DNA from: Macrostomum lignano
Taxonomy: Eukaryota
Assembly (NCBI GenBank): GCA_002269645.1
Contig: NIVC01001463.1
Location: 1-64,000, forward strand
Length of the DNA: 64,000 nt
Reading direction: 5' to 3'
The notes under the pieces were generated by a model. The model worked only from the letters and a program-made list of their open reading frames with translations, was not told the DNA's origin and ran no database searches. Made by a program: the position numbers and the translations under genes. Of the stretch, positions 751-64,000 are shown piece after piece. Positions within the stretch are counted from its first letter, which is position 1. Each line of letters opens with the position of its first letter.

Positions 751-37536
<36,786 letters not shown>

Positions 37537-52844: not shown

Positions 52845-54602
52845 CATCTACGGTATGTAAAAAAACTGCTGTGTTATAACTCTTTTAAAAAAAAAATTTT
52901 TCAATGCATTCCCATAGCTTTATCTCATAACTTATACACGCGAATACGTTTGTAGCTGGTATTGTTTGTTTTACGATTAAATGCAAACAAAATTGAACCG
53001 CATCCTCTGCACCTGCAGCTTCAGCCAGAGCATTGAATTTGCGGCGCTGGATTTATTAAGATACTTGACTCGAAATGCTGAGATTTTAAAGAGTTTTCTT
53101 AACGATAGAAATGAGAGCGTGATAAAACGTATATTTGAAATTGAGATTGCACGGTACAATGATTAAGTAGATATATATATATTACAGCTGTATATTATAC
53201 AAGTCAAGAATCATTTTTTACTTTTGAGTAGCATAATTTGCTGCTCTGTTGGAGACTAAAGTTACTAAAGCAATTCATTCATTTTTGTGTGCCTCCGTTG
53301 GCGCCCTAGCTGGCTCTCACTTTCTCGTTTTGGCGCCAGGGAATAGTCAGTATAGTTTTAGAAGTTCAGCTTCTCTAGATTTTCTAGTCTAGAAGTCCTA
53401 ATTCTTAATTTTTAACCCATGCATGTTTCAACATATTCGAAATGAAAGGGAACTGTTTTCGTGTTTGAATGGTATATTACTGTATGGGTATTAACTGTTA
53501 TCGCGCCATATTTTTTCCTCAGCAAGCTATAGGCTGCGGGATAATTAGAATGAAAGAGTAGGGGAAAGTGGGGCTGCGGGAGCCGAGCCCCGCGGCTGGG
53601 CATTTCAACACATAGGCACTTTTCATTTGATGAAAACGAAGTTCCTTCTGTTTGGTTAGATTAGATAGATCAAACTGCTGTTTGATCAAAATAGGTGAGG
53701 CTATAAAATACATGTAAAAATTCTGTGTTCGGAAAATGAATATTTAAGCAACCCTTTGTGAAGCCTGCACTTTTATGTCTATGGCCTAAACCACAAACTT
53801 TGACAGAACGAGAACTAAACTACTCACAAAGCAGCGGACTGCTTTAATATTCATTTTTACCTTATTGTGTACCTGCATGCTCTGACACAAAATACGACAC
53901 AAAACACAACGTCCTCCAGCAAAGTTGTAAAGAATGCCAAGTATAAAGGCTGATTAAATCATTCGTGTAGCTATTCAATTCAATAGCGCGTTGAAATTTT
54001 CTGTCTTATAGGAGCCTCAAAAAAAGAATTTATGACGTCTTTCTAAAACGTGGGTGTAATTTTACGTAGAGGTGAAAACAATGGTTTTTTAATTTTATAT
54101 ATCTAATGATGAAAATACCTAAATAAAAAACTTGTTGTTAAGTGTTTGTTTACTAATAATTAAATAGCTTAATATTTGTTTTAACTAAAAGCATTTGTTG
54201 TATTCGAATAAAAATGTTTTCAAATTACAAGCAGTTTTTAAAAGCATTTTCATCACTTTTTAACTGTTACTACACTGTCTTAAACGGTACTACTTCTATT
54301 CTAGGAACTTCTTCGTGGAATAGTTGTTTGTTTGGGTAAATAAGTGTGCCAAACCAGGTGACAAAGTTAATGTAAATTTTCAAGTTAACATGTCAATAAA
54401 TTGTACAAATGAAGATCTCATTTGTATAATGACAAACTCTATATTATAGGCCTAATATATTCTACAAGCAGTGAATCTACTACACTACAGCTACAGACAG
54501 TCGACAGTCGGAATGATAATATTCTAAAACTATAGAAGAAAAAGTAACTTTTTATCATTTTTCTACTCTTCTAGCAAACAATTAGTATTCCGCGGATGTA
54601 AG

Positions 54603-55370
54603 TGTGACAGGCCTTTTGGCTCTGTCTTTCTAAACTTCTAACTATTAGTGTTTATTAAATATCCTACGAGCTGCCACCAAAGTTGTTACAGGCCTTTCAC
54701 CTCTTACTTTATCAATTTTAATCCCACCGATTTGCCAACTACAGTTATCCTGATTATACTTGCTTTTACTCCCTAACTATTTCTTAGAATTTCATTTAAA
54801 TATTTCTGGGTAGCGTTCTTAGTAGCGTTTCTGGTAGCGTTCTTAGTAGCGTTTCTGGTAGCTTATGGCTTGCTTTCTGGTAGCGTTCTAGTAGCTTATG
54901 GCCTGAGCGGTCTAGTACTGGTATATGTATTAGTGTATAGTCCTAATCGGGCGTTCACCGAGACTAGAGGGTCACGGCGCCTCTCTTGGTATATCTCCAA
55001 GAATTAGTCCCAATTCCCTTCTCTTAGCAAATTTCTTAGAATCGTTTCACAGGTTTTGCAAATAAATAAGTCGCTATTTAGCTCAAAGACTTTGAAATGG
55101 TTTAGATTGAACTGCTTATTCTGTTCGCAATTATTTGCTCACGAGTAAAAGACAGTTAGAGTATATTTGTCGCAAAACCGCTCCTATATATAGTGATTTT
55201 CCCCACATACGATTAAAACAAAAAAATAATTCTCCAATTTATTTCGCGCATTAAAACAAACTATTATTTGGCGTTCGCGTAGATTCAGTTTCTAAGAAAG
55301 ATTCGAATATACAGTTATTACATTGAAAGAACATTTGAGTATACTATGATAAAGGCATAGCACTAGTACA
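54603..55370 (-). repeat. 3' LTR (768 bp)
   Basis: Direct repeat of 58908-59675. Minus strand reads TGTACTAG...CCTGTCACA. Confidence 0.95.
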
Positions 55371-55371
55371 A

Positions 55372-55383
55372 CTTTCCTCCTCT
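55372..55383 (-). promoter_or_regulatory. Polypurine tract
   Basis: AGAGGAGGAAAG lies 1 nt before the 3' LTR on the minus strand. Confidence 0.8.
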
Positions 55384-55656
55384 ATATATCAAATTTTGAA
55401 CGAAATACTATATTATATGTATACAGTGAAAAATTGATATCGTAGGAAAATGCAGGTGAAAAGGTGCAAAGCAAGGTGCAGAAAACACAATTCAGTGCTA
55501 AAACAATTGGTGCATAAAATGGTTGTGATAGAACTATTATGTAGGTAAACCATTAAAGTGAGAACTATTATGGAAGCAAAACGAACTATTATAAAAGTAT
55601 TATAAAAGGCAAAATTGTTATTAAAGGCAACGCAAAAGTTAGTTCACCTCAATAGT

Positions 55657-56532
55657 TCAGATAAACATGCAGGGCTCCGGGAGGTCGCGATAGTAGGGCC
55701 AGCCGACTTGAGCGAAAAACCATCGGTACTCTTCGTCGAGGACCGTCAGCGCTGGCGGCGGGTTGGCTCTTATAGCTCGCTGGAGGCGATAGGCGACGTC
55801 CTGGAGAACAGCGACAGCTTCCTGGTAACTGAATTGATCCCTCAGAAACTTCAGGTGTGTCCAAATTTGCGAGCATTGGGGGTAGCGCTGTCGGCTGTCG
55901 GATCGGTGGTACGCTACTTTCAGTGCGTATTGCTCAATGTGGAAGCGTAGCTTTTCCACCTCTGCTCCGCGAGTCTCCACAAGTTCTCGGACGATGCGAT
56001 GAAAATCTCTCTGCGAATTCGATTGCTGCTGGCTCGGCTGTAGTGCTGATGGCTGGCTAGACTGCTGCGCTGATTGCAGGCTCGGCTGCAGCGCTGACTG
56101 CTGCGCTGATTGCAGGCTCGGCTGCGACGCTGGCTGCTGAGCTGGCGGTGTCGCAGCTGTCGATTTCTTCTGCCGTGGTGCCGGGGTCTTTCTCGATGAT
56201 GGGGCAGCTGGCGGTGACACCAACTGCTGCGTTCGGCTTGATGTCGACGATCCTGGCGTGGCCTTGACAACATAGGAGCGCACGGGCGCAGCTGCCTGTG
56301 CTGCCACCAGGGCGGCGCGCTTCTGCTCGGGGCCTTCGACCCTCATTTGGCGGCAAGGCGATGAAGCTGGCGATGATGTTCTTGGTCGTTTGCTGGATAC
56401 ACCAGGCGCCTTTGGACGTGTTGCACATCGAAGCGGTGCCTCATTTTCGTCGGTGTTGGGCGCTGGCTGGGGCTCCATATCGTCTGACAGATTGCCAATT
56501 AACTCGTCCAAGATATCAATAGAGTTGTTCAT
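55657..56532 (-). CDS. Unknown 291-aa ORF inside the LTR element
   Basis: Intact ATG-TGA ORF that is markedly more GC-rich than the flanking element sequence. It has an acidic N-terminus, an S/P/Q-rich disordered middle and a ~115-aa predicted helical C-terminal domain. Confidence 0.7.
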   Translation of the reverse strand: MNNSIDILDELIGNLSDDMEPQPAPNTDENEAPLRCATRPKAPGVSSKRPRTSSPASSPCRQMRVEGPEQKRAALVAAQAAAPVRSYVVKATPGSSTSSRTQQLVSPPAAPSSRKTPAPRQKKSTAATPPAQQPASQPSLQSAQQSALQPSLQSAQQSSQPSALQPSQQQSNSQRDFHRIVRELVETRGAEVEKLRFHIEQYALKVAYHRSDSRQRYPQCSQIWTHLKFLRDQFSYQEAVAVLQDVAYRLQRAIRANPPPALTVLDEEYRWFFAQVGWPYYRDLPEPCMFI

Positions 56533-56615
56533 TTTGATTTCTCTGCGAATGGCTCTTAGAATAGAAAGGAAGCTAGCAGTGAGCTATGGGATCTGTGGGG
56601 CCTGCAGGGTGCTCG

Positions 56616-56682
56616 TATTTATAGGCTGGCGGGCCGAAAAACTGGACCTCTTCGAAGCACTTCTCTCGCGCGTGGGGCGGGG
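56616..56682 (-). promoter_or_regulatory. Internal Pol II promoter candidate for the 291-aa ORF
   Basis: On the minus strand, GC box CCCCGCCCC (56682-56674), then CCCGCC, then TATAAATA (56623-56616) about 85 nt upstream of the ATG. An AATAAA lies further upstream near 56750. Confidence 0.55.
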
Positions 56683-56932
56683 CATGCCAGATTTGACAGA
56701 TTTGACAACTAAATTTTTATGGATTTTCTATTTCTTTTTATAACTTTTTTATTTTTTGATAGATTTTCTTGAGTAAAGTATCAAATTAAAGATCGCATTT
56801 TGTAGATTAATATGGTATTTACAGATTCGCTCTATGTACAGCATGTCAAATTTTATAAGCAGATAAGTAATTCTAATACGGAATTTTAACTATTTAACAC
56901 TGTTTCTTATGGGAAATTGCTTACGTCATGAT

Positions 56933-57950
56933 TTAAGGTGCTAAATATTTCGCGTAGCGCCTTCGGGGCACAAATCCTGTCGCGCCTTCTCTTTCTCTCC
57001 TTCGCTGAGTCATCCTAAAGTTATACCTATTCTCTGGCTGAACTCGTTCCTCCTCTAACTCTAATGCTCCTTCTTCTTCTTCTGATGGCTCATCTGAGTC
57101 AGTCGCTCTCTCTGTATTTTCACTGTTTACTTCTTCATTTCCTTCGTTTTCACTCTGCGAATTCGGATCTGCGAATACTCTCCATTGAATTCTGTTTTCT
57201 TCGTCTGAGCTTTCCTCCTCTAAAATTTGAACTTCTGGAATTCTAACTTCTTTTTGTCTATGGCAAATTCTTTTCTTCGGCTTCGGCGGTTCCTTCTTCT
57301 TAGTTGGCACTATTGCTGGTTCTAAATTATCATTATTAATTTCTTCTGGTAAATCAATTTCGGATTTCGGCACTGGAGTCAGATTATTACTGTTTTTCTT
57401 CGAACAATTTTGCAAATTCTCACAGCTTCTCTTCGAAATCTCATCTTCATTTCATCTCATCTCAACTCAACAACTTCTCGACTCAATATCTCAACTCGAC
57501 CCTGACCTCTCGAAAGCTTCTCTGCTGAACTCATGCCAGCTACAGCTCTACTGTCACGGGTCCTACAACTCTTAACAAATTCTCAAATCTCGAATCTCCT
57601 TCCGCTATCTCAGTTTGGCCTCGTCAGTAGAATCATAGAAATTCTGTATTAATCTGCTCTTTAGGCCTTACTGCCCTTCCTTTCCTGCATGGCCTGACTC
57701 TCTGAACCTTTTTTGGCTCTTCTGAAAGCGTCATCGGCCTCTTCTTTCTGCCTTTGGCCAATCCGCAATTGGTCAGCATGCGTAGCTGTCCGCGCGTCAT
57801 GCCAATCTCTGCAATCCAATCTTTTCGACAATTCTCTTCGCACAATTCTGCACAGTTCTCTCAGCATCAACTTCTCGTCAACTTCTCTGAGTAAAATAAT
57901 CTTCCTTCAATGTTTTCAGTCCGAAATTGCAGTTCCCTGGCTTTCCTAAA
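56933..57950 (-). pseudogene. Probable decayed pol C-terminal remnant (post-integrase acidic tail)
   Basis: The 160-aa acidic frame has no ATG and is closed upstream by TGA at 57454-57452. It ends RYNFR...RRR, and there is a faint RVVGPVTVEL motif among multiple stops upstream. Confidence 0.4.
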
Positions 57951-58227
57951 TAAGTTTCTTAGTAAAACGGCCCTTTTAAGGTCAAACGGCCCTTTTAAGG
58001 GTTACCTCCTAAATTTTTAGCTATTTAACGAACTTTAGACGGCTTACTTGGTCAGTACATTGCAGTATGCAGACGAAATACTTCTTAAACAAATATTTTT
58101 TTTTTGGGTTTTCTGAATTTTTTTTATTCGTTTTTATATTTATGCATATATATTTGAAACATATTTACAGATTTGCTTTACAGACACTTTTAATTTGCTG
58201 ATTCGCTTGAGTTCGCTCACTTTCTGA

Positions 58228-58806
58228 TTATGGCGGCTTCTGCTGGGCGTACCGATTGAAGTTGATTCGGCACTGGTGTCCTGCTTGAGGCCTAATGGGT
58301 CCTGGCTGGTTGCAGAAGAAGCAGTGACCAGGTGTCGGCTCTGGCCTGATTCCACTGAATCTGTTCAGGCGGCGCGGTCTTGGTACTGACTGATGCTGCT
58401 GCCCTGTCTTTGGCTCTAGGCTTATGTTCGTTAGCACAATTGACAGAGTCATTAGACACTCTACTAATGCGTCAATCCCTTCTTTCTTGTTCTGCTGCTT
58501 CGGCTCAAATTCTTCGATGATCCTTCGCCTAATCTCCTGGTACTGACTCTGCTCTTTTCTGTGACTGATTCGGCGTTTCAGTCCCTCTGGGATGTTTAGA
58601 TTAGCAAAGAGAGCTTCCTTCTGTTTCTCGCCTGTAATCCCTTGGATTCTGCACTGCTGCTCAAACGTGTTCATCCACTGCCTAATGTTCTGACCAGGTG
58701 TGAACTTTTCTACTTGCACTTCAGCCTCCTTCGATCCTAACTTGAGATGTTTCCTCAGTTCCTCTGCCAGCATGGCGATGGCATCATTAGCCTGATTCTG
58801 ATTCAT
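58228..58806 (-). CDS. Gag-like protein (192 aa) with degenerate zinc knuckle
   Basis: ATG about 90 nt after the PBS. Capsid-like KFTPGQNIRQWMNTFEQQC motif. CFFCNQPGPIRPQ is a CX2CX4H knuckle with His replaced by Pro. Confidence 0.75.
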   Translation of the reverse strand: MNQNQANDAIAMLAEELRKHLKLGSKEAEVQVEKFTPGQNIRQWMNTFEQQCRIQGITGEKQKEALFANLNIPEGLKRRISHRKEQSQYQEIRRRIIEEFEPKQQNKKEGIDALVECLMTLSIVLTNISLEPKTGQQHQSVPRPRRLNRFSGIRPEPTPGHCFFCNQPGPIRPQAGHQCRINFNRYAQQKPP

Positions 58807-58894
58807 CTTCTCTTTACGAAAAACTTTTCAAATTATTCTTCGGAATTCTTCTGAATCTAGCTTTAAGAGTTCGCGCCGTTTCTCTAATCCTTAT

Positions 58895-58905
58895 CGCTGC
58901 CACCA
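58895..58905 (-). promoter_or_regulatory. Primer-binding site, probably tRNA-Leu
   Basis: TGGTGGCAGCG lies 2 nt after the 5' LTR and is complementary to the ...CGCUGCCACCA 3' end of eukaryotic tRNA-Leu(AAG/UAG) (recalled). Confidence 0.8.
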
Positions 58906-58907
58906 GC

Positions 58908-59675
58908 TTTGACAGGCCTTTTGGCTCTGTCTTTCTAAACTTCTAACTATTAGTGTTTATTAAATATCCTACGAGCTGCCACCAAAGTTGTTACAGGCCT
59001 TTCACCTCTTACTTTATCAATTTTAATCCCACCGATTTGCCAACTACAGTTATCCTGATTATACTTGCTTTTACTCCCTAACTATTTCTTAGAATTTCAT
59101 TTAAATATTTCTGGGTAGCGTTCTTAGTAGCGTTTCTGGTAGCGTTCTTAGTAGCGTTTCTGGTAGCTTATGGCTTGCTTTCTGGTAGCGTTCTAGTAGC
59201 TTATGGCCTGAGCGGTCTAGTACTGGTATATGTATTAGTGTATAGTCCTAATCGGGCGTTCACCGAGACTAGAGGGTCACGGCGCCTCTCTTGGTATATC
59301 TCCAAGAATTAGTCCCAATTCCCTTCTCTTAGCAAATTTCTTAGAATCGTTTCACAGGTTTTGCAAATAAATAAGTCGCTATTTAGCTCAAAGACTTTGA
59401 AATGGTTTAGATTGAACTGCTTATTCTGTTCGCAATTATTTGCTCACGAGTAAAAGACAGTTAGAGTATATTTGTCGCAAAACCGCTCCTATATATAGTG
59501 ATTTTCCCCACATACGATTAAAACAAAAAAATAATTCTCCAATTTATTTCGCGCATTAAAACAAACTATTATTTGGCGTTCGCGTAGATTCAGTTTCTAA
59601 GAAAGATTCGAATATACAGTTATTACATTGAAAGAACATTCGAGTATACTATGATAAAGGCATAGCACTAGTACA
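58908..59675 (-). repeat. 5' LTR (768 bp)
   Basis: Direct repeat of 54603-55370. Terminal CA is mutated to AA, and there is one internal substitution at 59641. Confidence 0.95.
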
Positions 59676-60362
59676 TAAGCACAATTTTGGTTATCGATCA
59701 TTTTTATCTAAAAGTTGTCTTTTAGATAATTGATTATTAAATATTAAATTATTAATTAATTATTATTAATTATTATTATTATTATTAATTATTAATTATT
59801 AAATATTAAATATTAAATTTTAATGATCATTAAAATATTGTCTTCTAAAATTGAGAGGGGGATAGCGTGGTACAGATTTCGCTTTGTAACCCCTCTCAAT
59901 TCTCTCTTTAAACAATTCTCTTTGCACTATGTAACGAGTCAGTGAAAGTGGAGGACTCTGTGCTGTGCAAGTGGGGTTTACAATGGCTGCCTTTATTGTC
60001 GCCAGATTGCCTTTTCTGTTTGCATCTCTTACTTCTACACCTTTTTCCATTCTATTTTGGCAAATGTACAATCAAAGTCAAAATCTTTTCATTCAATTCA
60101 GATAGTTTATGGTAGTTCTTGGCTGGACATGCATTTATTTCTGACAAATGTGCTTTCAAAAGCAATAATTTTCAAACAAAGCAAACAAGCTACCACAAGA
60201 AACTGACACTTTGCAATCAATTCCAACAATTGGCTATGAATTGGCTTTTTCTGTCCTAATGTCTATGGCTCATACTGCGAAATTTCCAATCAATTCTGAC
60301 AAATTTCAATCTATTTAAACAAGCTACTTTTTACTTTGGTTGGGACCAGGGCTAGATGCCAT

Positions 60363-62850
60363 GGTCCCAGGTCAATTCGGTGACAAGACATTTCGGTGAC
60401 AACAACTTCGGTGACAACTTGGGACGTTTCGGTGACACCAGTGGTCAATTCGGTGACAAGCTTTTTAGACTTGATTTGACTATTTTTCGTTGTTAAATAT
60501 TAAAATATAGCTGTCACTATAAACTCTTATTAAAGTATTGATGGTTCGTATGCTATCAATTATCATTTTGTTTGAGTGCGTTTCGAGGCATAATCACTTA
60601 TAGCGCGCACTTAATTTTATCCATACTTTTAATTTTTCAACTCAAGTCAACGATCCAATTGATGATTAGCGCCCCTCATACTCATGTTGGCGCCCAAAAC
60701 TTGGACCGACGCCCCCCCTTTCGGCCCCCAAATGAAATTCTAGATCCGCTACTGTATGTGCGCCTCACAGAGTATAGATTACGAGTGTGGGTGAGTTGGC
60801 TTGAAATTATCTTGTAATTAATTTTGGCGCTTATTGACAACTGTCCTATGCGTGTACAGTAAACTTATGGTCGCGGCTCGTGACCATGTCAACATAAACA
60901 CGTACATGTGTATAAATGTAGTCATTTTAGTCCCTTAAAGCCATTTTAAGGGAAGTTCGAAGATTCGCTCCCGATTTCTCACCCGCGAGATTTGTTCTCG
61001 ACTATGAGCAGCCATGCGGTTCGACGCATCTTTCCGCAGGCTGAAGTGCAGGGCTGCAATTTCCACTGGACCCAGGCAGTCTGGCGAAAAGTTCAGAACG
61101 TGGGTCTGCAGCAGTCCTATCGTGATGATGATGGCACAGAACGGTTCGTCCGGAAGTTGATGGCACTGCCGTACCTGCCACGTGACGAGATTAACGAGGT
61201 GTTTGAAAGCCTCCGAGCTTCGCAAGCTGCTCAGGCAGACGAAAGACTGCAGGAACTATGCGAGTACATTGGCAGTACATAGTTGGGCAAAGGCAGCAAC
61301 TGGAAAGCGGATGACATTTGCGTGTTTGGTCAGCCCATCAGGACCAACAACGACCTGGAGGGCTGGCACTATCGCCTAAACCGTAAAGCTGGGAGGCGCA
61401 ACCTCCAGTTCTATCTGTTGCTGCAACTGCTCCACGAGGAAGCTATCCTGGTGCCACTCCAGGCTCACCTGCTGTCCAGAGGGGTACTGCGTCGAGAGCA
61501 GCGGCAAGGGTACCGCACAGTTCAGTCTCGTTTATTTCGCTACTGGGCGGAACATGAACAAGGTACTCGAAGCACTTCGGCGGCTTCTTAAATTCTGTGG
61601 TCGTCTCTTTAATCCGAAGTGACATGACGACTGTGTTGCACCAAAGACTACATATGTACTAGACATATACACTAGACTGTACATGTACTAGAATCGAAGG
61701 CCGGATATTTAGGGAACTATACTACTCGTGTATACCATGTACTCTCGCAGTAGTGCAACTTGAGGGGGGGGGCGAATCATTCGCTTGGTCCCCTTTGATT
61801 TTTTCCGGTGTCCCCCGAAGGAGGGGCAACCGCCCCCCCCCCCGGTTGCGCCACTGTTACTCATTCTAATTCGTGTACTCATTATATTAAATACTGTACT
61901 GTACATGTTGTGTCGACTTGTGTTGACGCCTTTTTTGGTGCAAATATGTTTACTGCTTAGTTCTCTGTCCTTATTAAAATACACTGCTAAATAGCTGAAC
62001 TATCGTTCAGCTCATTATACTATCGATTCATATACTTGCACTGCACTGTAACTAACTGCTTTGAAATAGCTTGATTTAGAAACCACAATAAATTTGTTTA
62101 CGAAAATTAGACACCAAGAAGAAGCTATAGCTTTTGACTATACATCAAAGGGGGGAGCTGGGGGCGGGGGGCGCGGTCGGTTCAAGTTTTGGGCGCCAAC
62201 ATGAGTATGAGGGGCGCTAATTTATTTTAAGCTAGGGGTGCAAAAATGCGTGTAGGAGGCGAAAAATCTAGTTTAAATGGTGCTCAATAAGTTTTTGGGT
62301 TAATAAGTTTTTAGGTTTTAGGGGGCTCAATAAGTTCTATCAAGCTCTATCCGCGGGTCCGCCCCTATTGGCGCCCCTTGCCTTTAGTCCCTGAATTAGC
62401 ACATAACATATATTACAGTCATAAGCTACGCTATAGGTATACAGTTGTTTTCTAAACTCGTTCAATGGCTTTTAAGACGTACATGTACATGTACATCTAC
62501 AATACATGTACATGTAGTAGATGTAGTACAAAAAATCGAATCATCAATTGGATCGTTGACAGTTGATTTGAGTTGAAAAATTAAAAGTATGGATAAAATT
62601 AAGTGCGCGCTATAAGTGATTATGCCTCGAAACGCACTCAAACAAAATGATAATTGATAGCATACGAACCATCAATACTTTAATAAGAGTTTATAGTGAC
62701 AGCTATATTTTAATATTTAACAACGAAAAATAGTCAAATCAAGTCTAAAAAGCTTGTCACCGAATTGACCACTGGTGTCACCGAAACGTCCCAAGTTGTC
62801 ACCGAAGTTGTTGTCACCGAAATGTCTTGTCACCGAATTGACCTGGGACC
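60363..62850 (+). mobile_element. Internally deleted MULE (Mutator/Phantom-like) with sub-repeat TIRs
   Basis: 8-bp TSD GATGCCAT at 60355-60362 and 62851-62858. Near-perfect ~305-bp TIRs containing five TTCGGTGACA subrepeats. An inner TIR extension pairs 60666-60715 with 62165-62220. Confidence 0.9.
60933..61591 (+). pseudogene. MULE transposase C-terminal fragment
   Basis: FVLDYE, frameshift, then AVRRIFPQAEVQGCNFHWTQAVWRK and RTNNDLEGWHYRLN. In-frame TAG (probably from TGG) at 61280-61282. The N-terminal half is missing. Confidence 0.88.
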
Positions 62851-63145
62851 GATGCCATAGACACATCATGGAAAGAAACTTGGAGATTCAGAACACCCAT
62901 AGATAGATTTAGCCTTGCATATATACTTCTGTACTTTTGCAATGAACAGAAACAAAAGTTTTTTCCAACTATTGAAGTTAGATAGGGCCATGACTCAATG
63001 CCATAGATATATCATGAAAAAAAATTTTGAAATTTAAGTATAGGTACCATTTCATTTGACAGAATGAAGCATACATATAGGAGCTACTGTAGCCTTTTGA
63101 ATCAAATTGTATTGTACAGAAGAAGACCTCAAGAATATGCTCATA

Positions 63146-63410
63146 ATGCCAAATGCAAAAGTGAGTAACAACAATTGGTAGAGGCTCATTGATGCACACA
63201 TAAATAGAGACGATTTTGTGCATCTTGCTTTAGCAATGGGCATCAAGCAAACAACTATGTATACAATTGTGAAAAGTGGAAGGCCAGCTAAAATGCCAAA
63301 AAAGGTCCTAAGCATGTTAGCATGTGAGAGTGGATCAAGAGATGTTGGATTTTCTTGAAGAGTTGATTCAAGTTAACCCCTATATTACTCTAGCCGAACT
63401 GAAGACTGGC
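63146..63410 (+). pseudogene. Tc1-like transposase N-terminal HTH relic
   Basis: MPNAKVSNNNW*RLIDAHINRDDFVHLALAMGIKQTTMYTIVKSGR, then in another frame VDQEMLDFLEELIQVNPYITLAELK. No DDE domain. Confidence 0.55.
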
Positions 63411-64000
63411 CTTCATGCTTGCTTTTCTGAAAAACCCAAAGTAGCAATGTAGTATGTACTCCAATAGCTTGTCTAAATAGATTGAAATTTGTTGGAATTG
63501 ATTAGAAATTTTGCAGTATGAGCCATAGATAGGAAGACAGAAAAAGCCAATTCATAGCCAACTGTTGGAATTGATTGTAAATTGTTTGAATTGATTACAA
63601 AGTGTCAGTTTCTTGTGGTAGCTTGTTTGCTTTGTTTGAAAATTGTTGCTTTTGAAAGCACATTTGTCGGAATTGAATGCACATTTAGCTAAGAACTACC
63701 ATAAACTGTCTGAATTGAATGAAAAGATTTTGACTTTGATTGCACGTTTGCCAAAATAGAATGGAAAAAGGTATATACACTTTGTTATAGGCCTACTCCA
63801 TAGGCCTATCAGTTATACGCTATACAACACAGTTGACAAATAAAAAGTTGACAAGTTTACCTAGATCTGTTCAAGTGGGGGCCTCTTGAGACAGAGAAAT
63901 AGGCCTATAGTGCTATAGGCCTAGTTTCAGAATGTGGTTAATTTTTGGGGCAATTTTTGTTTAAATGATTGTCTTCTGAAACTGAAATAGGCCTAGTATA

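Follow-up and report, generated by a model that had tools for sequence, protein, structure and literature searches.

We examined a 64,000-nucleotide stretch of the Macrostomum lignano genome (contig NIVC01001463.1 of assembly GCA_002269645.1, positions 1 to 64,000; hereafter the window), in which a Ty3/Gypsy-type retrotransposon of 5,073 bp occupies positions 54603-59675 of the minus strand. Between the remains of its pol and its 3ʹ long terminal repeat (LTR) lies, as a separate frame, a third open reading frame (ORF), ORF3 (minus strand, 55657-56532), which encodes 291 amino acids (aa). The element is young and non-autonomous, with its cis-acting signals whole and pol lost. ORF3 is, as judged from its conservation in paralogs, a real gene, and both env and a frameshifted piece of pol are ruled out. 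It is most probably a resident accessory gene of some kind, and the protein family that it specifies appears to be undescribed.

A frame of the length of ORF3 was reached in none of 2000 base shuffles of ORF3. With its C-terminal 120 residues as the query, a HMMER scan of 1.84 billion representative proteins gave five matches, of which four cover most of the C-terminal domain (E 2e-18 to 5e-5); these four are three named M. lignano clusters and one Logan pair. The M. lignano proteins that match this domain include PAA77797.1, PAA83213.1, PAA73844.1, PAA76031.1 and PAA60020.1. The fifth, P0004, a fungal tetratricopeptide-repeat protein (E 1.5e-5), was judged a repeat artefact based on 39 residues of repeat and was kept out of the alignment. 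No viral protein was found among the five matches, and nothing credible from outside Macrostomum in the searches made. Two full-length relatives are 38% and 31% identical to ORF3 and a 90-aa fragment is 47% identical, so that the gene would be old enough in its lineage to have paralogs at 30-45% identity. In comparison with two paralogs, 37 of 66 and 31 of 61 positions are identical in residues 31-100, and 45 of 117 and 45 of 118 in residues 172-291, whereas just 39 and 27 residues of the 71-residue linker could be aligned (14 and 6 identical). The full-length paralogs have in common the acidic N-terminal helix, the motifs PLR-x-TRP, KRP and K-R/K-AA, and a C-terminal domain ending in GWPYY...C-x-F. 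Since one paralog begins at the equivalent methionine with the same acidic helix, ORF3 is a separate gene. Conserved modules around a free linker are the mark of purifying selection on a separate protein, which excludes a frameshifted piece of pol, an option that an earlier reading of the DNA from its letters alone (the sequence-only reading) had itself raised. Of the two motifs which that reading had likened to nuclear localisation signals, KRPR and RQKK, only the KRP of the former is kept across the paralogs.

The protein is arranged as an acidic amphipathic N-terminal helix (residues 4-16), a region of basic and linear motifs (31-100), a variable Q/S/P linker, and a helical domain (~167-291). 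The net charge is -9 in residues 1-32, +16 in residues 33-130 and +2 in the C-terminal domain. The linker contains the 36-bp duplication already seen by the sequence-only reading (at ~56132-56061), with 34 of 36 positions identical. The same reading had held that the protein is not Env, and we agree: ORF3 has no hydrophobic segment (maximal 19-residue Kyte-Doolittle value 1.02), six paralog sequences have no membrane segment either (0.22-0.90), and the N-terminus is acidic; the hallmarks of Env, a signal peptide and a transmembrane (TM) segment, were not found, although no dedicated signal-peptide predictor was run. The protein ends in C-M-F-I (55660-55671), which resembles a CaaX box; the cysteine is the fourth residue from the end in two lineages and the third in two. 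Two M. lignano proteins of 118-119 aa, P0005 and P0007, comprise nothing but the C-terminal domain, lack both the basic region and the GWPYY tail, and could possibly be domesticated or dominant-negative forms.

AlphaFold, supplied with a seven-row alignment, predicted a helical domain at residues 167-275 (predicted local distance difference test score 57-93, by block), a disordered middle of the protein and a helix at residues 4-16. The sequence-only reading had described an aromatic helical C-terminal domain that it did not recognise, and the paralogs share a helical domain of ~120 aa at this place; neither Pfam, Foldseek nor the PDB sequence profile gave an assignment. Pfam assigned no family to ORF3 or to any of the seven aligned members, the best ORF3 match being Histone at E 0.11; a mimic of histone tails was considered and rejected, as this match is confined to the low-complexity linker and was seen in one of the seven members. 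No viral family was present among the Pfam matches to the seven members at E<=1. For residues 172-291, the ESM Atlas gave no usable match, and a word-index search yielded none from 123 candidates and, with the alignment, one from 7999, which was already a member. The PDB sequence profile returned nothing below E 3.6, and none of 89 pattern matches in metagenome contigs and none of 37 in viral contigs were confirmed. Foldseek at E<=0.001 found nothing in the PDB with either of two models, or in a viral library searched with the first model only. The best VIA-align matches, with Z 8.2 (root-mean-square deviation (rmsd) 3.6, 106 residues aligned) and Z 8.7 (rmsd 2.9, 101 aligned), were both to unrelated helical proteins, and such values are within the range expected of helical bundles. 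The top 50 structural matches include neither a capsid lobe nor a viral regulator, which excludes nothing, and the fold searches scarcely covered the N-terminal half of ORF3. A homodimer prediction for residues 168-291, in which the alignment was not used, scored 0.00.

In the literature searched, including a 2025 paper on M. lignano LTR elements, no description of ORF3 was found; a 2020 classification of M. lignano LTR elements, outside that search, might describe it. The gene ids of the paralogs are in no main text and are absent from the readable supplements of three papers; expression tables may list them.

The ends of the element are well preserved, as the sequence-only reading had stated. 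The 3ʹ LTR (minus strand, 54603-55370) and the 5ʹ LTR (minus strand, 58908-59675) are each 768 bp long and differ at exactly two positions. The former has TG...CA ends, whereas the latter ends in AA, one of the two mismatches being located in this terminal CA. At the second mismatch, 55336, all four sequencing runs that we compared (X1, X5, X6 and X19, from four studies and out of 19 listed; compared over 54200-58907) carry the letter of the 5ʹ LTR at full depth, so that the letter of the 3ʹ LTR either occurs in this copy only or is an error of the assembly. The target-site duplication (TSD), TAAG, is present on the left (54599-54602) and on the right (59676-59679); a flank contig of run X1 stops exactly at 54602, which fits a 4-bp TSD boundary and may possibly reflect an empty allele, without proving it. 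A polypurine tract (PPT) of 12 purines (minus strand, 55372-55383) lies 1 nt ahead of the 3ʹ LTR and is separated from ORF3 by an AT-rich untranslated spacer (minus strand, 55384-55656; GC 0.30). The primer-binding site (PBS; minus strand, 58895-58905) is 11 nt long, begins 2 nt past the 5ʹ LTR and is presumably of the tRNA-Leu type; longer versions are present in other copies of the element, as seen in the run contigs.

We also noticed some features of the LTR itself. In its U5 end (54603-54750 and 58908-59055) there is a degenerate second LTR end followed by a PBS, at ~54661-54715, and perhaps a third, and another copy has its leader joined at 54670, with a PBS of greater length. These features suggest that subfamilies with shorter LTRs exist and that the LTR grew through a shift to a downstream PBS. 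The U3 part contains a TATA-like TATATATA at 59497 and, ~55 nt upstream of it, an exact copy of GCGCGAAA (59554 and 55249), which we take to be an E2F-type site; seven such sites occur in the whole window. A link of this site to proliferating cells is possible. A canonical heat-shock element was not found in the element. A literature search with the PBS motif gave unrelated papers only, and the LTR and PBS motifs of the element are absent from the supplements of PMC12801592, in which the long alignment rows are incomplete.

Both gag and ORF3 are open, as had been claimed. The short gag (minus strand, 58228-58806) encodes 192 aa and is followed by an AT-rich spacer, by ~500 nt with stops in all frames (minus strand, 57452-57960) and by an open acidic tail of 172 codons (minus strand, 56933-57451). 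The description of the pol remnant as full of stops thus holds for 57452-57960, and does not hold for the final 172 codons (57451-56936), which are uninterrupted. By eye, from its position and motifs, we take the pol remnant to be the C-terminal region of integrase and the open part to be its putative C-terminal tail; hidden Markov models gave no support for this. Neither reverse transcriptase (RT) nor the integrase core is detectable, in agreement with the sequence-only reading: when the stretch from gag to the tail was translated in its three minus frames, with stops written as X, Pfam gave no match of any kind at E<=0.3. With neither family in any of the three frames, the element cannot move by itself.

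Language-model (Atlas) features placed gag in Ty3 capsid/Retrotrans_gag clusters (0.92), and all ten of its best family-bearing Atlas matches belong to the Retrotrans_gag/Ty3_capsid family or clan. Sequence searches for Pfam families, homologs and PDB entries gave no match, and no longer relative was found among 509 candidates. We have moderate confidence that gag would belong to the Ty3-type capsids. By eye, it apparently consists of one capsid lobe and a degenerate zinc knuckle lacking the histidine. Over 226 bases, aligned without gaps, a second gag variant shows 21 differences, ~16.5 silent and 4.5 replacement changes (ratio of nonsynonymous to synonymous rates, dN/dS, ~0.06 over 76 codons), and it is collinear across the expected position of a second capsid lobe. 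Taken together, the collinearity and the dN/dS suggest that the short gag has been under selection in its present form, or that the gag of this lineage is natively short. The differences between the gag variants are concentrated in 58384-58540, which suggests a recombinant patch.

The sequencing depth of run X19, whose kind is not on record and whose depth is not a copy number, was 14-15 in the flank and 199-201 in the ORF3 contigs (~14x flank; 0 and 1 differences). The contig from the promoter to the tail had a depth of 223, the broken pol remnant 133 (~9x flank), and the gag variants 97 and 37, together 133, so that the depth of ORF3 is at least that of gag and of the pol remnant. Taken loosely, these values suggest that ORF3 has recently multiplied to about a dozen near-identical copies, a third of them without this pol remnant. 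In runs X5 and X6, the element was covered and the flank was not; none of the listed runs is recorded as RNA. One contig departs from the sequence of the window at 57388, and the letters past this point, read by hand, look like an uninterrupted integrase C-terminal motif. This is a hint that relatives bearing pol may carry the same 3ʹ end. Possible traces of an autonomous partner are the excess of depth, the loose end at 57388 and related PBS/LTR junctions in other contigs; no full element was readable. The sequence-only reading had proposed a trans-mobilised vector. The young non-autonomous element with a real gene that is neither env nor pol stands, whereas the word vector probably overstates the case in view of the depth and the loose end; more likely, ORF3 belongs to the family as a whole and came to this deletion derivative by inheritance.

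ORF3 is preceded by an arrangement of motifs which had been read as a promoter of its own. The TATA motif TATAAATA (minus strand, 56616-56623) lies 91 nt 5ʹ of the ORF3 ATG, with the variant GGCGGG at 56628-56633 and a canonical GC box, GGGGCGGGG, at 56674-56682, both read on the plus strand. Further upstream, an AT-rich spacer (minus strand, 56701-56932; GC ~0.27) separates the pol tail from this block and holds an AATAAA at 56753-56748. All of the motifs named earlier are therefore present, although the second GC box is just a variant and TATAAATA is not enriched: two copies were found in the window against 0.95 expected, and 26 of 100 shuffles reached two. It is the placement of the motif before a proven ORF, and not the octamer itself, which argues for a promoter, and the internal promoter is predicted from the arrangement of motifs only. 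The AATAAA lies in an A-tract of 26% GC and is cut by a 90-nt deletion in two of the four runs. Since a strong poly(A) site at this point would truncate the genomic RNA (gRNA), it would be at most leaky. AG dinucleotides follow a pyrimidine tract near 56555 and 56543, so that splicing or trans-splicing at these sites is possible, and donor-like motifs are present at 59014, 58222 and 58049. No splice joint into ORF3 was found among the 15 of 17 joints listed, and contigs cannot show splicing. The TATA regions of the LTR and of the internal promoter match at 12 of 14 bases, which was reached by 101 of 300 shuffles. The end of an X5 contig at 56605, just below the TATA motif, was considered as a hint of a start site and rejected, as X1, X6 and X19 run through this position. 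At 56662 and 56664, three of the four runs (X5 has no cover there) carry another letter at full depth, indicating that the promoter region of this copy differs from that of most family copies just below the GC box.

The layout of the element has precedents, and the protein family is what appears to be new. LTR retrotransposons are known to carry additional ORFs (aORF or ORF3) between pol and the 3ʹ LTR, e.g. gene23 of maize Grande (PMC7264820), which is nuclear and has its own promoter, and TRP28 of Retand (PMC11963269). These plant genes resemble ORF3 as extra genes at the same position, kept across copies and restricted to a lineage; they are, however, antisense, whereas ORF3 is a sense gene of an animal element, and there is no detectable sequence similarity. 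In bdelloid rotifers, the non-autonomous TelKA2n has lost the C-terminus of gag and most of pol and kept its ORF3 (PMC5408684). The ORF3s of rotifers encode env-like, GDSL, DEDDy, coiled-coil or TM proteins, reportedly from spliced messages, whereas the ORF3 studied here is a soluble orphan behind a TATA box. In Tor3b and Tor4b of Oikopleura, an internal promoter drives env (PMC4402516). These are likewise animal LTR elements with a third gene behind an internal promoter, in Tor4b after pol; the Tor gene, however, encodes a membrane glycoprotein, and its promoter was mapped by 5ʹ rapid amplification of cDNA ends, while ORF3 has no TM segment and a promoter that is predicted only. Foamy viruses express tas from an internal promoter, and Tas of bovine foamy virus binds DNA through its N-terminal part and activates through its C-terminal part (PMC4929722). 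Tas would be similar to ORF3 as a soluble regulator of similar size behind an internal promoter near the 3ʹ LTR, and it differs in the lack of any sequence match, in the reversed order of the folded and acidic parts and in belonging to a retrovirus, not to a Ty3-type element. Finally, CERV of Cer1 from Caenorhabditis elegans is a nuclear accessory protein, made from a spliced mRNA, which acts in gRNA export (PMC10309623). It would resemble ORF3 as a new nuclear accessory protein of an animal LTR retrotransposon, although no similarity was detected in the searches run.

Our best reading, held tentatively and at somewhat below an even chance, is that ORF3 is a long-resident, non-Env accessory gene which acts as a nuclear activator or anti-silencer, in a layout like that of foamy-virus Tas. 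The element would be a young deletion derivative of a Ty3/Gypsy-type retrotransposon; it retains all cis signals (LTRs, PBS and PPT), and an autonomous relative would provide the RT and integrase that move it. ORF3 would have been inherited with the 3ʹ end from the parent lineage and not captured by this copy. The TATA/GC-box promoter would give rise to a short ORF3 mRNA with its end in the 3ʹ LTR, and the conserved basic motifs KRP and K-R/K-AA would import the protein into the nucleus. There, the helical C-terminal domain could bind DNA or RNA of the element or a chromatin factor of the host, and the acidic amphipathic N-terminal helix could recruit the transcription machinery. In this way, ORF3 would raise the expression of other family members in trans, either activating them or relieving their silencing, as with Tas.

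Several observations weigh against this reading. The activator role would be read from the charge pattern and the layout only. The C-terminal domain is weakly basic (net +2), no family or fold could be assigned to ORF3, and its domain order is the reverse of that of bovine foamy Tas (PMC4929722). The TATA motif by itself is not above chance, and neither is an element common to the LTR U3 and the internal promoter, as 100-281 of 300 shuffles reach the best match. The one ORF3 difference listed among copies is silent (32 of the 40 rows shown were used; there are 176 further rows), indicating that the copies are too young for dN/dS. Finally, the named paralogs, going by their locus tags from a repeat-filtered annotation, could be ordinary host genes.

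The last point leads to host capture, in which ORF3 and its promoter would come from a Macrostomum-specific host family and be amplified by the element, the named paralogs being the host members. The GenBank annotation of M. lignano is based on RNA and excluded transcripts overlapping repeat annotations (PMC5730564), and all named full-domain relatives are M. lignano gene models that appear to belong to it, so that they are probably transcribed and may be host genes. The repeat library behind that annotation, however, was built with an LTRharvest step that demanded TSDs of at least 5 bases, and elements with a 4-bp TSD could have escaped it. In addition, one and the same paralog of 349 aa has annotations on two contigs, each with its own transcript-cluster name, as expected of mobile copies. 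The composition can be argued in both directions. The ORF3-promoter block is a GC-rich island (0.54-0.58) amid AT-rich spacers (0.27-0.30), as the sequence-only reading had noted, and the GC at fourfold-degenerate sites (GC4) of the C-terminal domain, 0.655 over 55 sites, exceeds that of gag (0.41). On the other hand, this C-terminal value equals that of a non-LTR retrotransposon ORF in the same window, and ORF3 as a whole stays below five host exons of the window both in GC4 (0.56 against 0.74-0.84) and at third codon positions (GC3; 0.60 against 0.76-0.83, with gag at 0.57). The contrast, although real against the spacers, is partly a matter of amino-acid composition and is no sign of capture. 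No recent donor is visible, as identity to the nearest named relatives does not exceed 38% (full length) to 47% (90-aa fragment). A recent capture from a virus or host, as proposed earlier, is not supported, given these values and the lack of a viral relative among the matches, and we regard host capture in general as improbable.

For a resident gene, other roles than activation have to be weighed. ORF3 might be a nuclear factor of the Rev or CERV kind, a family gene binding the unspliced RNA of the element for export or stability, with the N-terminal helix as an export or adaptor motif. The protein is soluble and basic and combines low-complexity sequence with a small folded domain, Cer1 of C. 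elegans encodes such a factor, and the donor-like motifs in the element mean that unspliced RNA could need help to exit the nucleus. CERV, however, is made from a spliced mRNA (PMC10309623), whereas ORF3 lies behind a TATA/GC-box arrangement, and the paralogs have no conserved arginine-rich RNA-binding run; we consider this role unlikely. A function outside transcription, particle-associated or host-modulating, seems rather unlikely as well; it might consist in Gag binding, in a membrane location through a lipidated C-terminal cysteine, or in acting on host pathways of restriction or survival in stem cells. The conserved PLR-x-TRP and V-R/Q-x-x-V/M look like docking sites for host proteins, all four lineages retaining the C-terminal end have the C-x-F terminus, and the short gag is under purifying selection. 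Nevertheless, the CaaX box is not conserved, given the shifting position of the cysteine, and the basic KRP motifs would better match nuclear import. That ORF3 is spurious, dead or a frameshifted piece of pol is largely refuted and very improbable. Half of the protein is of low complexity and the copies are too young for stops even without selection, but base shuffles did not yield such a frame, the diverged paralogs retain the start, the motifs and the domain, and between ORF3 and the pol tail lie ~400 nt, mostly AT-rich, in which all frames contain stops. Returning to the nuclear activator or anti-silencer, one may carry it further, to a foamy-virus-like circuit evolved independently in an animal Ty3-type element. 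Here, the internal promoter would drive a new transactivator or anti-silencer which turns on the LTRs of the family, pol-less derivatives would be selected to keep and amplify the regulator together with a one-lobe Gag, and helper and satellite would share the labour of mobilisation. This extended version we hold to be quite unlikely.

Soluble regulators are known in complex retroviruses, and few have been characterised in animal LTR retrotransposons, CERV being one. ORF3 would add an apparently undescribed family, whose folded domain is small and whose carrier is an element in current expansion. If it activates or unsilences in trans, it would be a new tool of transposon counter-defence in a stem-cell-rich animal. 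Because M. lignano permits transgenesis and LTR reporter assays (PMC12801592), the function of ORF3 can be tested directly. Of the M. lignano genome, 21% consists of LTR elements (PMC5730564). Surveys anchored on RT are blind to pol-less elements of this kind, and the RT-first method of the 2025 M. lignano paper would miss this one.

The window also holds a large Ig/TSP1/G2F (hemicentin-like) gene with introns filled with minisatellites, and a galactosyltransferase. In an intron of the Ig-repeat gene, we noticed a non-LTR retrotransposon (5887-10627, minus strand) whose RT-RNase H frame is open over 933 aa. At 60363-62850, perfect 289-nt inverted repeats surround a broken transposase-like frame (~61007-61588), which is Mutator-like by eye and has no Pfam match. 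This element is nested in an older one, at 60036-63775, whose inverted arms are 91% identical.

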